This document shows, piece by piece, positions 10,925-16,172 of a stretch of 24,000 bases of DNA. The position numbers and the translations under genes are program-made. Source of the DNA: Cytophagaceae bacterium. Lineage in GTDB: Bacteria; Bacteroidota; Bacteroidia; Cytophagales; Cytophagaceae. Positions within the stretch are counted from its first letter, which is position 1. Every line of letters begins with the position of its first letter. Location of the stretch: the NCBI GenBank assembly GCA_035535995.1, contig DATLOZ010000012.1, positions 62,326 through 86,325 on the forward strand. The letters run 5' to 3'. The notes beneath the pieces are model-generated. The model was not told the DNA's origin. It did not search any database and saw nothing but the letters and a program-made list of their open reading frames with translations.

Positions 10925-13768
10925 CTAGTGCGCTTCCAACCAGTTCTCCCCTACTCCAACTCCAATTTCCATCGGCACGCCAATATCGATGGCGGTTTTC
11001 ATGTATTCTGCAATTTTCAGTTTCATTATCTCTAATTCGCTTTGATGCACATCGAAAACCAATTCATCATGTACCTGCATAACCATTTGTGATTGGAGCT
11101 TTTCTTTTTTCATCCAGTCATGAATATTGATCATCGCCACTTTGATCATATCGGCGGCGCTTCCCTGGATTGGCGCATTGATGGCGTTTCGCTCGGCATA
11201 TCCTCTCAGCGTAGCATTGCCGGAAGTAATATCAGGAAGATATCTTCTTCTTCCCATGATCGTTTCTACAAAGCCCATTTCGCGTGCGCTGTTCACGATC
11301 TCGTCCATATATACTTTGATGGCAGGGAATTGTTCGAAATACGATTCGATGATTTCAGCAGCTTCTTTTCTTGGAATATCGAGTCGCTGCGCGAGTCCGA
11401 AAGCAGAGATCCCATAGATGATCCCGAAGTTTACCATTTTTGATTTTCTCCGCATATCGGAAGTAACAGCCTCCAATTCTACCTTGAAAACTTTACTGGC
11501 CGTAGTCGAGTGAATGTCGATTCCATTTTTAAAAGAATTGATCATATTCTCTTCCTTACTGAAAGCTGCCATAATACGAAGCTCAATCTGTGAGTAATCG
11601 GCTGAAAGGATCAGATGGTTTTCGTCTTTTCGCACAAACGCTTTTCTGATCTCTTTCCCCCGGTCAGTACGGATCGGAATATTTTGCAAGTTCGGATTTG
11701 TAGAGCTCAGGCGGCCTGTAGCGGCCACAGCCTGGTTGTACGAAGTATGCACACGCTGGTCTACTTTGCTGATCAACGTAGGCAATGTGTCTACATACGT
11801 AGATTTTAATTTCTGAAGCTCACGGTAATCAAGAATATCGGCAGCAATTTTATGTTCGTACGCAAGACGACTCAAAATTTCTTCGCCGGTAGCGTATTGT
11901 CCTGTCCTGGTTTTTTTTGCTTTCGGATCCAGTTTTAATTTTTCAAACAGCACATCGCCCAATTGTTTTGGTGAAGCAATGTTAAACTGTACTCCAGCCT
12001 GGTCATAAATACTTTTTTCGATCACCAATACTTCTTTGGCTAGTTCGCCCGAAAAATCTTTCAACGCCGAAGGATCGATCTTCACGCCTGCGTATTCCAT
12101 ATCAGCGAGTACATCAATGAGTGGGTTTTCTACCTGGGTGAAAAGTTTTTCGAGCTGATGTTGTTTCAGGATAGGTTCAAAAATATTTTTTAACTGGTAC
12201 GTAACGTCGGCATCTTCGGCTGCATATTCGGAAATTTTCTCGATCGCTACATCCCGCATATTTCCTTGCATGCCGCTCTTCTTACCGATCAGGTTTTCAA
12301 TAGAGATAGGAGAATAATTCAAATAGGTTTCCGAGAGAATGTCCATACCATGCCGTTTGTCAGGTTCTATCAGGTAGTGCGCCAGCATGGTATCGAAAAT
12401 TTTTCCTTTTACTTCGATCCCATAGTTTTTTAGCACCAGTACATCGTACTTCAGGTTTTGCCCGATCTTAACGATCGATTCATCTTCCAGTACTCCTTTG
12501 AATTCGTTTATGATCTTCTGCGCTTCCGCTCTATCGGCCGGGATCGGAACATAGTACGCTTCTTTTTCATAATAAGAAAAAGCTAGTCCTACCAGCTCTG
12601 CTCCCACAGCATCGAGACTGGTGGTTTCAGTATCAAAACAAAACTCGCTTTGTTGCTTCAAATATCCAATCAAACTTTGTCTCAACTCGGGAGTATCAAT
12701 GGTATGGTAATCGTGCAATACAGTTTGCACGGTATCATAATTTTTTCCAACGATTTCATCCTCCTCTTCTACTTCGATGATTACTGTAGTTTCGCCTCCG
12801 CCAAATAAGGACATCTGCGATTGATCTCCTTTTTTAGAAGCCTTCGTAGAAGCCTTTGGAGTAGCGGCTGCTGGTGTTTCGTCCGCAAATTCATCGCCGA
12901 TGATCCGTTTTTTCATATTACGGAATTCCAGTTCGTCGAAAAGTGCTGAAAGCTTTTCTTTATCCGGACCATCGTAAAATAATTCTTCTTCGGTAAAAAC
13001 AATTGGAACCTCGCAATGAATAGTGGCGAGTTCTTTGGACATCAATCCTTGCTGCGCAAAATTGATCACGTTTTCTTTTTGTTTCCCTTTTAGTTTATCC
13101 GCATTGGCAATGAGATTCTCAACCGAGCCAAATTCGGCGATCAACTTCTGCGCTGTTTTCTCACCAATGCCTGGAATACCCGGAATGTTATCGACGCTAT
13201 CACCCATCAATCCAAGGATATCGATTACTTGTTCTACACGTTCTACGCCAAATTTTTCCAATACCCTTGCTACATCGTAGGTTTCATAGCCTGTACCAAT
13301 GTAGGAAGGTTTATAGAGAAACACATTTTCGTTGACAAGCTGACAATAATCTTTATCCATCGTCATCAGGTACACTTTGTAACCATTGGCAGAAGCGTAT
13401 TTGGCAAGTGTACCGGCCACGTCGTCGGCTTCGTAGCCAGGAATTTCCAGTACAGGGATGTTAAAACATTTCAAAAGCTTTTTCACCAGTGGAATTGCCA
13501 GCGTGATATCTTCCGGCTGTTCCTGGCGGTTGGCTTTATACTCTGAATAATTATCATGACGGAAAGTATCCTCGGGTGTGTCGAATGCTACGGCGATGTG
13601 CGTAGGTTTTTCTTTTGAAATTACTTCCCAGAGCGTATTGGTAAAACCAAACACAGCAGAAGTATTAAGTCCGGCGGAAGTAACGCGTGGATTTTTGCTG
13701 AAAGCGAAATGCGCCCGGTAGATCAGGGCCATAGCGTCCAGCACGAAAAGTTTTTTGGGAGTACTCAT
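10925..13768 (-). CDS. polA: DNA polymerase I
   Basis: 947 aa. It has a 5'-nuclease N-terminus (LFVLDAMALIYRAHFA...), a 3'-5' exonuclease region (FCFDTETTSLD) and polymerase motifs (LSADYSQIELRI, RRKSKMVNFGIIYG, VMQVHDELVF). Confidence 0.97.
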   Translation of the reverse strand: MSTPKKLFVLDAMALIYRAHFAFSKNPRVTSAGLNTSAVFGFTNTLWEVISKEKPTHIAVAFDTPEDTFRHDNYSEYKANRQEQPEDITLAIPLVKKLLKCFNIPVLEIPGYEADDVAGTLAKYASANGYKVYLMTMDKDYCQLVNENVFLYKPSYIGTGYETYDVARVLEKFGVERVEQVIDILGLMGDSVDNIPGIPGIGEKTAQKLIAEFGSVENLIANADKLKGKQKENVINFAQQGLMSKELATIHCEVPIVFTEEELFYDGPDKEKLSALFDELEFRNMKKRIIGDEFADETPAAATPKASTKASKKGDQSQMSLFGGGETTVIIEVEEEDEIVGKNYDTVQTVLHDYHTIDTPELRQSLIGYLKQQSEFCFDTETTSLDAVGAELVGLAFSYYEKEAYYVPIPADRAEAQKIINEFKGVLEDESIVKIGQNLKYDVLVLKNYGIEVKGKIFDTMLAHYLIEPDKRHGMDILSETYLNYSPISIENLIGKKSGMQGNMRDVAIEKISEYAAEDADVTYQLKNIFEPILKQHQLEKLFTQVENPLIDVLADMEYAGVKIDPSALKDFSGELAKEVLVIEKSIYDQAGVQFNIASPKQLGDVLFEKLKLDPKAKKTRTGQYATGEEILSRLAYEHKIAADILDYRELQKLKSTYVDTLPTLISKVDQRVHTSYNQAVAATGRLSSTNPNLQNIPIRTDRGKEIRKAFVRKDENHLILSADYSQIELRIMAAFSKEENMINSFKNGIDIHSTTASKVFKVELEAVTSDMRRKSKMVNFGIIYGISAFGLAQRLDIPRKEAAEIIESYFEQFPAIKVYMDEIVNSAREMGFVETIMGRRRYLPDITSGNATLRGYAERNAINAPIQGSAADMIKVAMINIHDWMKKEKLQSQMVMQVHDELVFDVHQSELEIMKLKIAEYMKTAIDIGVPMEIGVGVGENWLEAH

Positions 13769-13867
13769 GCTATAAAGATACGAATATTTAAAGACTTTGC
13801 GGAAAGGAATAGGTTTTGAGGTTTGCTTTCTTTTTCCTAATTTTAATAACGTTCAAAAACATGATTT

Positions 13868-14002
13868 ATGACTTCTGACAAGACAAAGAATCCTGAAAAT
13901 CTGAATATCTACGAGAAGCGTTTTTTGTTGATGATGAAAATGATCAAGATTGATAAGATGCTGAAGGGGGCGAAAATTACTCATAAAAAATGGAATAAGT
14001 AA
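13868..14002 (+). CDS. Possible 44-aa basic small protein immediately upstream of the nucleotidyltransferase gene
   Basis: Hand-translated: MTSDKTKNPENLNIYEKRFLLMMKMIKIDKMLKGAKITHKKWNK. Its stop TAA (14000-14002) is 1 nt before ATG 14004. It is below the ORF-track size cut-off and I have no homology evidence. Confidence 0.25.
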   Translation: MTSDKTKNPENLNIYEKRFLLMMKMIKIDKMLKGAKITHKKWNK

Positions 14003-14003
14003 A

Positions 14004-14480
14004 ATGGATGTTTTTGATGAAGAAGTTTTGGCTCTATGGAAAGCGTTTGATAAAAACCAACTGGAATATATCATGGTAGGGGGCTTTGCGACCAATCTTC
14101 ATGGGTATATGCGCACCACTGCAGATATGGATATATGGATTAAGGACACCATTGAAAATAGAAAAAAATTAAACCAATCGCTAATAGATTTCGGCTATGG
14201 CGAAATTCACAATATCGAACGATTAGAATTTATTCCAGGGTGGACTTCTCTTAAACTAAGCTCTGGATTAGAACTTGATATTATGACTTTTTTAAAGGGC
14301 TTTCCTCAAGAACGTTTTGATGAATGCATGCAACTTTCAAGTTCTGCCATTATTTTTAACACAGAAATAAAATTTCTCCATTTTAATCATTTGATCGAAG
14401 CCAAAAAGGCAACTCATCGTAACAAAGATCTTATTGATATAGAAGAATTGGAAAAAATAAAAAACAATAATTCAATTTAA
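14004..14480 (+). CDS. Minimal nucleotidyltransferase-fold protein (Pol-beta NTase superfamily, DUF6036/AbiEii-like)
   Basis: IMVGGFATNLHGYMRTTADMDIWI fits the hGG-x(9-13)-D-h-D NTase signature. The C-terminal HLIEAKKATHRNKDLIDIEELEK is the K..sgR.KD..D motif common in this group. By eye it is more AT-rich than polA and nth. Confidence 0.65.
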   Translation: MDVFDEEVLALWKAFDKNQLEYIMVGGFATNLHGYMRTTADMDIWIKDTIENRKKLNQSLIDFGYGEIHNIERLEFIPGWTSLKLSSGLELDIMTFLKGFPQERFDECMQLSSSAIIFNTEIKFLHFNHLIEAKKATHRNKDLIDIEELEKIKNNNSI

Positions 14481-14489
14481 CCTCACTCC

Positions 14490-14512
14490 GTGTTCTGTGG
14501 CACACAGAACGC
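14490..14512. repeat. Family C hairpin repeat, copy 1 (between NTase gene and higA)
   Basis: GTGTTCTGTGGCACACAGAACGC: stem GTTCTGTG/CACAGAAC with loop GCA. A 21-nt core identical to this one lies at 15297-15317. A partial left half (CTTCCCCTGTTCTG) follows at 14531-14544. Confidence 0.9.
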
Positions 14513-14555
14513 TATTACTCCCGACTGCCTCTTCCCCTGTTCTGCATCATACTTT

Positions 14556-14912
14556 TTAATACGCCTGAATAAGCGATTCCAATGGAATATTTAATTTCTC
14601 ATGCAAACTGCGAATCATCTCTAACGTAAGTTTGCGCTTCCGATTCAAGATCTCACTCACTCTTCCTTTATATCCAATGATCTCTGCAAGATCTTTTTGT
14701 TTATAGCCCATTTGTTCCATCCTAAACTTGATCGCTTCAATAGGATCTGGAGCTTCGATCTTATAGTGCTCGTCTTCATATTTTTCGATCAACACTGATA
14801 AAATATACAACTCATCACCTTCCTTTGTACCAGGACTTGCGTCAAAAATTTTTTCAAGGCGTTTCAATGCCTTATTATAATCTTTTTCTGTTCTAACAGG
14901 TGTTATATTCAT
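14556..14912 (-). CDS. higA: Type II antitoxin HigA (HTH/Xre-type)
   Basis: ORF 14556..14975 trimmed to ATG 14912 (MNITPVRTEKDYNKALKRLEKIFDA...). The C-terminal HTH is YKQKDLAEIIGYKGRVSEILNRKRKLTLEMIRSLHEKLNIP, like E. coli HigA. It starts 2 nt after the higB stop. Confidence 0.85.
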   Translation of the reverse strand: MNITPVRTEKDYNKALKRLEKIFDASPGTKEGDELYILSVLIEKYEDEHYKIEAPDPIEAIKFRMEQMGYKQKDLAEIIGYKGRVSEILNRKRKLTLEMIRSLHEKLNIPLESLIQAY

Positions 14913-14914
14913 CT

Positions 14915-15208
14915 TCAGATTGTATTGGCGTCTATCTTGTCGTATTGAGCATGCGTGCCTATAAAACGAACCCAAACCATTTTGTGGGGGTAATTAATTT
15001 TAACAATTAGCCGATATAGGTTTCCTTTGATATTAAAGACAACCCGGTTGTCGGCCAGGAAGCTTGCACCGGGATAATTTTTCTTAATATCTCCAGGTTT
15101 TTTCCAGGTAGCTTTTGCGGCTTCATCGTACCAGCTTTTCAATTGCTGTTCACAATCTTCGTGTTTTTCCCAAAATTGTTTCAGGGTCTTTTTAGCGATC
15201 ACTCTCAC
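14915..15208 (-). CDS. higB: Type II toxin HigB (RelE-fold mRNA interferase)
   Basis: ORF 14915..15253 trimmed to GTG 15208 (VRVIAKKTLKQFWEKH...). FNIKGNLYRLIVKINYPHKMVWVRFIGTHAQYDKI matches the HigB toxin family pattern. Toxin-first order is typical of higBA. Confidence 0.85.
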   Translation of the reverse strand: MRVIAKKTLKQFWEKHEDCEQQLKSWYDEAAKATWKKPGDIKKNYPGASFLADNRVVFNIKGNLYRLIVKINYPHKMVWVRFIGTHAQYDKIDANTI

Positions 15209-15245
15209 TGCTTTTAGATTTGTAAAAATAATAAAAAATAACAAT

Positions 15246-15262
15246 GTTCCCAAATTGGGAAC
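15246..15262 (-). promoter_or_regulatory. Candidate HigA/HigBA operator palindrome
   Basis: GTTCCCAA-A-TTGGGAAC: perfect 8+8 palindrome, 38-54 nt upstream of the higB GTG start. Type II TA operons are typically autoregulated at such sites. Confidence 0.5.
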
Positions 15263-15296
15263 TAAAAAATATACTCAAAAAATATTACTTCTTCCT

Positions 15297-15319
15297 GTGT
15301 TCTGTGGCACACAGAACAC
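15297..15319. repeat. Family C hairpin repeat, copy 2 (at nth stop / upstream of higB)
   Basis: GTGTTCTGTGGCACACAGAACAC: 10-bp perfect stem with loop GCA. It overlaps the nth stop codon (15319-15321) and probably serves as the nth terminator. Confidence 0.9.
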
Positions 15320-15978
15320 TACTCTTCCTGCGTCTCTTTCACATACTTCCCATAATACCAGCAAAAATCTGTCAGCGGGCATTCATTGCATTTCGGATTG
15401 CGCGCTACGCAGATATAGCGCCCGTGCAGGATCAACCAGTGATGTGCTACATGCACATACTCACTCGGAATATATTTAACCAATTGTTTTTCCACTTCCA
15501 GTGGCGTATTGGCTGTTTGTGTTACCAATCCTATTCTTTTGGAAACACGGAACACATGTGTATCCACGGCCATAGCGGGTTGGTGGTAAATGACCGACAC
15601 AATCACATTCGCAGTTTTTCTTCCTACACCTGGTAGTTTTTGCAAGTCTTCTAGATTGTCCGGCACTTCCCCTTTGAAATCTTTGATCAGCATTTTCGCC
15701 ATGCCGAGTAAATGTTTGGCTTTGTTATTTCCGAAAGAAATACTTTTGATGTATCCGAATATTTCTTCTTCGGAAGATTTTGAAAGTTCGTACGCATTAG
15801 GAAATCGCTGAAACAGTGCAGGTGTGGTCATATTTACTCTTTTGTCTGTACACTGCGCGCTAAGGATCACGGCCACCAGCAGTTCATAAGGGTTGGAATA
15901 ATGTAGCTCTGTTTGAGCATCAGGAGAATGATTTTTAAAATAATTGATAAACCGCTCGTAGCGTTCTTTCTTCTGCAT
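15319..15978 (-). CDS. nth: Endonuclease III (DNA glycosylase/AP lyase)
   Basis: ORF 15319..16065 trimmed to ATG 15978 (MQKKERYERFINYF...), because the extension translates an intergenic repeat. It has the HhH-GPD motif (LQKLPGVGRKTANVIVSV...AVDTHVFRVSKRIGL) and a 4Fe-4S Cys cluster (CVARNPKCNECPLTDFC). Confidence 0.95.
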   Translation of the reverse strand: MQKKERYERFINYFKNHSPDAQTELHYSNPYELLVAVILSAQCTDKRVNMTTPALFQRFPNAYELSKSSEEEIFGYIKSISFGNNKAKHLLGMAKMLIKDFKGEVPDNLEDLQKLPGVGRKTANVIVSVIYHQPAMAVDTHVFRVSKRIGLVTQTANTPLEVEKQLVKYIPSEYVHVAHHWLILHGRYICVARNPKCNECPLTDFCWYYGKYVKETQEE

Positions 15979-16020
15979 GGGATTATAAGCTTTGATTGCT
16001 AAAGTAAGAAAAAAGATGCT

Positions 16021-16172
16021 GGATACCAGATGCCAGATACCGGATGAAATGAGGTCAATACTCACTGTTCTTTCTAAACGCCGACCAATCTCTAAACTGG
16101 ACTTAAAGAATTTTCGAGATAATACCTTTTACCAGAATTTATCTGGCATCTGGCATCTGGTATCCGGTATCC
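16021..16172. repeat. Inverted pair of family A heptamer arrays flanking a unique spacer of roughly 90-100 bp
   Basis: Left arm: GGATACC AGATGCC AGATACC GGATGAA (16021-16048). Right arm: GGCATCT GGCATCT GGTATCC GGTATCC (16145-16172), the complement orientation. It lies between the nth start and the sigma-operon terminator. Confidence 0.85.

Follow-up and report, generated by a model that had tools for sequence, protein, structure and literature searches.

What does a nucleotidyltransferase (NTase) of only 158 amino acids (aa) do together with a 44-aa protein that is encoded immediately upstream of it? The question is raised by a stretch of 24,000 nt from a Cytophagaceae bacterium (GCA_035535995.1, contig DATLOZ010000012.1, positions 62,326-86,325, forward strand), here called the window. 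An earlier note on this DNA had put forward the short open reading frame (ORF) as a new partner of the NTase within a two-gene toxin-antitoxin (TA) or defence module. The proposal is supported at the level of sequence by the co-occurrence of the two genes at all 80 loci that we compared. The pair is probably an undescribed TA system, common in Bacteroidota, of the kind represented by MenAT1 of Mycobacterium tuberculosis, with the NTase as the toxin and the small protein as a member of a new single-helix antitoxin family. Within the window, the two genes are:

13868..14002, + strand: small ORF, candidate antitoxin gene, 44 aa; recognized as an ORF, by conservation in 80 of 80 loci and by an AlphaFold2 model
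14004..14480, + strand: NTase gene, candidate toxin gene, 158 aa; minimal Pol-beta fold, borderline DUF6036 type

The coordinates of both ORFs and the peptide strings quoted in the earlier note were right, as was everything else that it gave as fact. The TAA stop codon of the small ORF is followed by one A and then by the NTase ATG, i.e., the two genes are 1 nt apart, and because an in-frame TGA lies two codons 5' of the small-ORF ATG, 44 aa is the maximum length of the product. One genome per species was scanned, yielding 164 NTase relatives, the best 80 of which were kept for all counts out of 80 given here; several of the supporting loci stem from metagenome-assembled genomes (MAGs). An ATG-started ORF of 40-93 aa ends beside the NTase start in 77 of these loci, and the other three encode the same peptide from a non-ATG start, so that the small ORF is present 5' of the NTase in 80 of 80. 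The gap between the genes has a median of 2 nt in the 77 loci, and in 75 of them it falls between -17 and +15. Pairwise identities of the small protein and the NTase correlate (r = 0.70), and the two genes are inherited as a unit.

Conservation acts on the small ORF as a protein. When the window ORF was compared with its three closest relatives, non-synonymous differences amounted to 19-23% of sites, while the synonymous proportion was saturated (0.72-1.01); with so few amino-acid changes at that level of synonymous divergence, the small ORF is under purifying selection. For the small gene, pN of 0.19-0.27 was likewise obtained alongside saturated synonymous proportions of 0.72-1.06. The closest pairs alone were used, dN/dS over all 355 locus pairs being uninformative (median ratio 0.65) because of saturation at synonymous sites. 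Both of the checks that the earlier note had named for the small ORF, i.e., co-occurrence with the NTase clade and purifying selection, were thus borne out by the 80 loci and by conservation at the protein level.

The family shares the core (Y/H)-(T/E)-(E/Q)-R-F-x2-L-M-x-L-(I/M)-(K/R)-I-x-(K/R)-M-L-K-x-A-K-I-(T/I)-H, which in the window protein takes the form Y-E-K-R-F-x2-M-x2-M-I-K-I-x-K-M-L-K-x-A-K-I-T-H; many members carry an additional N-terminal segment (EEEKL..L.R). A profile of the family matched 564 proteins in a 90% identity database, which form at least 362 clusters at 50% identity. They are 34-107 aa in size, with the conserved part C-terminal in almost all, and throughout are either unnamed or called "hypothetical protein". 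Nothing meaningful was found for the small protein or its family in Pfam, NCBIfam, PADLOC or the PDB; a Pfam YjcQ match (19.7 bits, below the cut-off) was discarded, as it was seen in no other family member. No family member carries a further fused domain, nor were natural fusions of the small protein to the NTase found, the longer profile matches being upstream read-through or frameshift artefacts.

AlphaFold2 predicts a single helix in the small protein (residues 14-33, pLDDT >90), flanked by a disordered N-terminus and a basic tail. We had expected this helix to be amphipathic, a label that was dropped since its hydrophobic moment (0.12) is lower than the shuffle mean (0.26). In the model, hydrophobic residues lie on all sides of the helix, and one or more partners would therefore have to surround it. 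A transmembrane segment is absent from the small protein (GRAVY -0.87). Its pI of 10.1 and net charge of +7.6 are complementary to those of the NTase (pI 5.1, net charge -8), and the family medians show the same difference (pI 10.0 and 5.1, respectively).

The Pol-beta signature that the earlier note had read in the NTase was confirmed. The catalytic set comprises G26-G27, T39, D41-x-D43, D92, K134, D142 and D145, and ten residues are invariant in 18 close homologs (G26, R37, T39, D41, D43, D92, K134, R139, D142 and D145); after addition of paralogs at 25-37% identity, G26, G34, T39, D41, D43, N52, K134 and D142 are invariant. Motif I/II is present as V25-G26-G27 and D41-M-D43-I and is kept in 77 of the 80 loci, and position 92 of motif III (L-D92-I) is D or E in every sequence. 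In motif IV, K134 is invariant and D145 nearly so, with K-x4-R-x2-D-x2-D found in 78 of 80 loci. T39, which lies within R-x-T-x-D-x-D, is invariant in two alignments (A1 and A4) and kept in almost all paralogs examined. Against Pfam DUF6036 (PF19502), the window protein scored 20.7 bits (E 3.9e-4; gathering threshold 23.6), while homologs at 54-81% identity bear PF19502 in precomputed annotation and the paralogs tested scored 20-37 bits, mostly above the cut-off. In total, 1207 homologs were detected, many of them with precomputed PF19502; they come mostly from Cytophagales, Chitinophagales, Sphingobacteriales and Flavobacteriales, from MAGs and isolates alike.

By profile and by fold, the closest solved relative of the NTase is MenT1. 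With an AlphaFold2 model of the NTase (pLDDT 90, pTM 0.85) as query, the top Foldseek match in the PDB was MenT1 within the MenAT1 complex (8an5_B, E 1.6e-4, TM 0.62), followed closely by LnuA (E 2.1e-4), TM1012, the Paracoccidioides NTase-like protein 5uvd and ANT(2'')-Ia. A narrow NTase profile reached MenT1 at an E of 0.48 only. The broad profile (A4) matched MenT1 (8an4) at an E of 8.8e-7 across positions 15-148 of 155, compared with approximately 1e-3 for TM1012 and 4e-3 for LnuA, a roughly 1000-fold better value for MenT1. Among fold matches that are nearly level, the sequence profile decides for MenT1.

The profile alignment places T39, D41, K134 and D145 of the window NTase on MenT1 T39, D41, K137 and D152 (the MenT1 chain index in this alignment being the residue number minus one), all of which have been mutated experimentally (PMC10435456). 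MenT1 is inactivated by antitoxin-induced auto-phosphorylation at T39, and a Ser/Thr is strictly conserved at the auto-phosphorylation site of DUF1814-superfamily toxins (PMC11375011). The phospho-acceptor precedes the first catalytic Asp by two residues (MenT1 T39, MenT3 S78), a position at which the window NTase likewise has a putative acceptor, T39. As the window NTase gave no match to Pfam AbiEii (PF08843) at E values up to 1, we have filed it as a superfamily relative and not as a DUF1814 member, although distant paralogs do pass the AbiEii model (27.0 and 26.2 bits vs. a cut-off of 22.5). Judged by sequence, it is related, in pared-down form, to the MenT/AbiEii toxin branch and lies outside DUF1814 as Pfam defines it.

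MenT/AbiEii-type NTase toxins have been studied in mycobacteria and streptococci, where their partners are AbiEi-type regulators or, for MenT1, MenA1. MenAT1 (MenA1/Rv0078B and MenT1/Rv0078A; PDB 8AN4, 8AN5) resembles the window pair in that a short helical protein without a DNA-binding domain is encoded upstream of a minimal NTase, and the GG, T39, DxD, K and D residues of the two NTases align. MenT1 is also net acidic over the aligned region (15 K/R vs. 23 D/E in 144 residues, 14-157), and the acidity of the window NTase is no argument against a tRNA target. There are also differences. The window NTase measures 158 aa and MenT1 approximately 197 aa, the two being approximately 19% identical, and by Pfam the former is borderline DUF6036 and the latter DUF1814/AbiEii. 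The partners share no detectable sequence similarity: the window protein has 44 aa and one predicted helix, MenA1 68 aa and two helices. In addition, the host of the window pair belongs to the Bacteroidota, and the pair is known from sequence alone. For MenA1, the N-terminal helix by itself suffices; two MenT1 protomers are held on opposite sides of its central helix, and phosphorylation can already be induced by a truncated helix (PMC10435456, PMC11375011).

Two further systems had been named in the earlier note as possible kin, namely MNT-HEPN (minimal nucleotidyltransferase with HEPN toxin, type VII TA) and AbiE. Neither of these proved the closest known relative, which is MenAT1, i.e., a minimal toxin of the AbiEii superfamily with a short helical antitoxin. 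AbiE (AbiEi-AbiEii, type IV TA, COG5340-DUF1814) shares with the window NTase motifs I (hGG), II (DxD), III (h[DE]h) and IV (K...D), and some paralogs of the window NTase family pass PF08843. In contrast to AbiE, however, the window locus has no AbiEi/COG5340 winged-helix partner; its upstream protein of 44 aa (34-107 aa across the family) shows no winged helix-turn-helix above threshold, and the NTase is approximately half the size of AbiEii. The MNT-HEPN systems are similar in having a small Pol-beta NTase within a two-gene module. They differ in that the islet holds no HEPN gene and the small ORF alone is conserved beside the NTase in 80 loci, that gene order and the pattern of gene decay favour the NTase as the toxin, and that the profile relationship is to MenT1 and not to MNT.

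Decay of the NTase gene was observed at several loci. In a MAG of the same genus (L098, G003:C208, 1083-1300, minus strand), the small ORF is intact (MKFTSRKMPENLNIYGKRF...), while the NTase is truncated after approximately 12 codons by the end of an adjacent gene whose product looks, by eye, to be sorted by the type IX secretion system (T9SS). In a second genome (L008, G033:C15, ~1300-1970), an internal TAA interrupts an NTase paralog in which RLLPVMGIW stands in place of R-x-T-x-D-x-D, and the upstream partner frame (...NHTERFYLMTELFRIGKMMEKAIIEPAK) remains open. Two more loci (L037 and L058) have lost catalytic residues and kept the partner. No intact NTase without a partner was found in the close clade. 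This asymmetry of decay, the position of the small gene upstream and the relationship to MenT1 point to the NTase as the toxin and the small protein as the antitoxin.

The earlier note had raised the alternative of a uniformly stand-alone housekeeping enzyme; the distribution is instead patchy, multicopy and found in varying contexts. The close NTase occurs in 20 of 41 relatives, and the broader NTase superfamily in 88 of 301 sampled Bacteroidota genomes (~29%) and in 64 of 144 genera, with up to approximately four matches per genome, many of them fragmented or stop-interrupted. Apart from the pair itself, none of the gene families is common to more than 12 of the 80 loci, and what looked like a neighbour family at 14 loci was rejected as an antisense reading of the NTase gene. 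The varied, unrelated neighbours are housekeeping genes, among them, by eye, rpe, gcvT, pnp and rpsO. A distant homologous pair (L126) is carried on plasmid pGM02 of Geminocystis sp. NIES-3708 (1329-1902), where a 60-aa partner of the YW..T..QRL type and a 145-aa NTase sit inside a type I restriction-modification operon, with hsdS on one side and hsdR on the other, beside a VapC toxin gene and a helix-turn-helix gene. Taken together, the pair behaves as a mobile accessory cassette. The small gene on pGM02 is annotated as "toxin secretion, membrane fusion protein" and looks mis-annotated.

In the window, the pair belongs to an islet between polA and nth that contains the small ORF, the NTase gene, higA and higB only. 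polA starts at 13768 on the minus strand and is divergent from the pair; nth lies on the pair's far side, beyond higBA (14556-15253, minus strand), which is convergent with the NTase gene. The earlier note was correct in calling higBA bona fide (HigB: HigB_toxin, PF09907, E 5.7e-32; HigA: HTH_3, E 3.9e-8, both by Pfam), in finding neither a HEPN nor an AbiEi-like gene in the islet (we found none in the ORF list or by Pfam search) and in describing the region as AT-rich by eye, GC content being 34-37% over 13600-15400 and 42-45% in both flanks. Two further features adjoin the genes:

13769..13867, + strand: presumed promoter region of the two-gene operon, 99 nt from the divergent polA start to the small-ORF ATG
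14490..14510, no strand assigned: palindrome GTGTTCTGTGGCACACAGAAC, 9 nt past the NTase stop, a copy of a dispersed hairpin resembling repetitive extragenic palindromic (REP) elements

A scan of 13769-13867 for the sigma-70 consensus came back empty, as expected, since the Bacteroidota promoter type is outside the coverage of that scan. The palindrome at 14490-14510 may terminate transcription from both sides, that of the NTase operon and that of the convergent higBA. This 21-nt element, GTGTTCTGTGGCACACAGAAC, recurs as a direct copy at 15297-15317, so that the two copies lie on either side of higBA. They had been considered as islet-specific marks of a mobile cassette, a reading that was weakened because GTGTTCTGTGGCACACAGAAC is dispersed through the genome, where it was found 19 times (13 exact; reversed control, 0). 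A second, commoner short repeat occurs 5' of nth (16010-16052), with approximately 40 genome matches at 82-97% identity.

Related genomes show the same region in other states. In a sister genome (G005) the gene order is polA, small ORF, NTase, nth; there the NTase and nth are 2 nt apart, with neither the hairpin nor higBA, and the segment 14481-15318 of the window therefore looks like a later insertion. The pair also adjoins polA in another genome (G001). At three loci of two genomes of the genus, G002 and G003 (L095, L098 and L100), the polA-nth gap holds an ORF of approximately 600 aa instead of the TA islet; by eye, its product resembles secreted proteins that end in a sorting domain of the T9SS type. 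The polA-nth gap looks like a hot spot at which cargo varies.

Could the pair be a two-subunit enzyme rather than a TA system? The NTase would then modify a small molecule or nucleic acid, in the manner of LnuA or ANT(2'')-Ia, and the basic helix would be its obligatory activating or substrate-recruiting subunit. LnuA, ANT(2'')-Ia and TM1012 are of the same size class and share the two-lobed minimal NTase fold (TM 0.57-0.59), their Foldseek matches are near level with that of MenT1, and there are weak Pfam matches to Aminoglyc_resit; a basic partner could bind RNA or DNA, and strict co-occurrence suits an obligate heteromer as well as a TA pair. However, the profile support for LnuA and TM1012 is weaker (E 1e-3 to 4e-3) by approximately 1000-fold than that for MenT1, and resistance models do not recognize the window NTase (no NCBIfam family; Pfam Aminoglyc_resit, 15.4 bits vs. 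a cut-off of 21). Patchiness, paralogs, pseudogenes, changing neighbours and the company of higBA, VapC and restriction-modification genes would be unusual for an enzyme of metabolism or resistance, and small ORFs persist without the NTase. We therefore regard a two-subunit enzyme as unlikely. LnuA, ANT(2'')-Ia and TM1012 are not known to require a small partner protein.

Reversed polarity, as in type VII systems, fares worse, and we consider it very unlikely. The small basic protein would be the toxic component, e.g., by binding nucleic acids or membranes, and the NTase would neutralize it by nucleotidylation or sequestration, as MNT does with HEPN. It is true that MNT antitoxins also belong to the small Pol-beta NTases, that a Lys-rich peptide of 44 aa might harm the cell, and that the Tyr or His common just before E-R-F could be a modification site. 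Nevertheless, that Tyr varies (P, D and F also occur), and a transmembrane segment is lacking. The small gene occupies the usual antitoxin position and outlives deleted, broken or catalytically dead NTases, which a toxin should not tolerate, and the NTase is related to the MenT/AbiEii toxin branch, not to MNT. Least credible of all is that the small ORF is a mere regulatory leader, i.e., an upstream ORF or attenuator peptide through which translation of the NTase is controlled and whose product has no role of its own. Its shortness, its tight coupling and the lack of an annotated family would fit such a leader. However, its 30-residue core is conserved as protein at saturated synonymous sites, its helix is confidently predicted, its homologs of 34-107 aa have conserved C-terminal cores, its charge complements that of the NTase, and longer related partners accompany distant paralogs. 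A small residual probability is reserved for explanations other than these.

We thus return to the MenAT1-like TA pair as the favoured explanation. The two genes would form a self-contained, translationally coupled module that works like M. tuberculosis MenAT1. By homology, the NTase would extend tRNA 3' ends and so block aminoacylation. By analogy with MenA1, the basic 44-aa protein would bind the acidic NTase and cover its active-site face; its helix, with hydrophobic residues facing all sides, could bridge two NTase molecules. It may also push the invariant Thr39 towards the bound nucleoside triphosphate, so that the toxin auto-phosphorylates and inactivates itself. Were synthesis of the small protein to stop or the protein to be degraded, free NTase would arrest growth. 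Addiction to the islet, stress-induced stasis and abortive infection are candidate roles.

Several points weigh against this explanation. We infer toxicity, complex formation, tRNA modification and phosphorylation alike. The fold matches to resistance-type and other NTases are nearly as good as that to MenT1, and the window NTase itself stays below the DUF6036 threshold and outside the AbiEii model. A profile of the small protein (A2), searched against all PDB chains at E values up to 10, did not match MenA1, and the antitoxin role therefore rests on analogy. Strong basicity is not usual among antitoxins and would also suit a subunit that binds nucleic acid. The orphan small ORF in the same-genus MAG could be an assembly artefact, that MAG being 74% complete. 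PADLOC returned no match for the pair, and searches of phage GenBank records and of IMG/VR turned up no relatives; a fold search of BFVD gave uncharacterized phage NTases only.

The partners of more distant paralogs bear on how widely the family extends. Almost all NTase paralogs at 24-40% identity have an overlapping upstream ORF of 57-90 aa, whose product carries the motif (Y/F)-W-x3-(T/S)-P-x-E-R-(L/I/F), a helix and a basic strand, e.g., R-L-Q-R-V-Y-R-I-x-K. Profile-profile comparison of these partners with the 44-aa family aligned the E-R-(F/L) helix (P = 1.8e-4, 48% probability), which suggests, at the sequence level, a common origin of the two. Other arrangements were also seen. Two distant paralogs without an upstream partner (L124, 1186-1386; L125, 1268-1486) have an ORF of 67-73 aa directly downstream of the NTase (...W.E......F......TPE(D/E)...), which may belong to another partner family or reflect an inverted order of the two genes. 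An NTase subfamily with the sequence LP.DFKEFL.LLN.H.V.YLLIGGYAVGYHGY.RAT.DMD was noted at seven loci (L129, L131, L133, L135, L137, L149 and L154), and no recognizable upstream small ORF was found at these.

On a broader and more tentative view, which we hold to be possible but on balance doubtful, the 44-aa protein would represent the shortest branch within a large superfamily, as yet without a name, of small partners with a core formed by a (T/S)-x-x-E-R-(F/L/I) helix and a basic strand. Together with minimal NTases of the DUF6036/DUF2204 type, these partners would constitute one of the commonest TA families of Bacteroidota, reaching into Cyanobacteria, in which a single helix clamps the NTase and triggers auto-phosphorylation at Thr39. 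In the literature searched, nothing relevant was found on DUF6036 or DUF2204, the latter being mentioned once in passing. MenAT1 already sets a precedent for an NTase toxin that is paired with a short helical antitoxin. New here are the subfamily of the toxin, the family of its partner and the phylum. The auto-phosphorylation mechanism has so far been proposed for M. tuberculosis MenAT1 and MenAT3 and, according to a 2026 preprint, for S. agalactiae AbiE.

If the favoured explanation is true, a large TA family is added in environmental Bacteroidota, in which the toxin is reduced to 158 residues and its partner to one helix. Naming the partner family would give better annotation to hundreds of loci. 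As a minimal system, the pair would also lend itself to asking whether antitoxin-induced auto-phosphorylation of a conserved Thr is a general control of NTase toxins and, if the broader view is true as well, this mechanism would extend to further phyla and to a new antitoxin fold.

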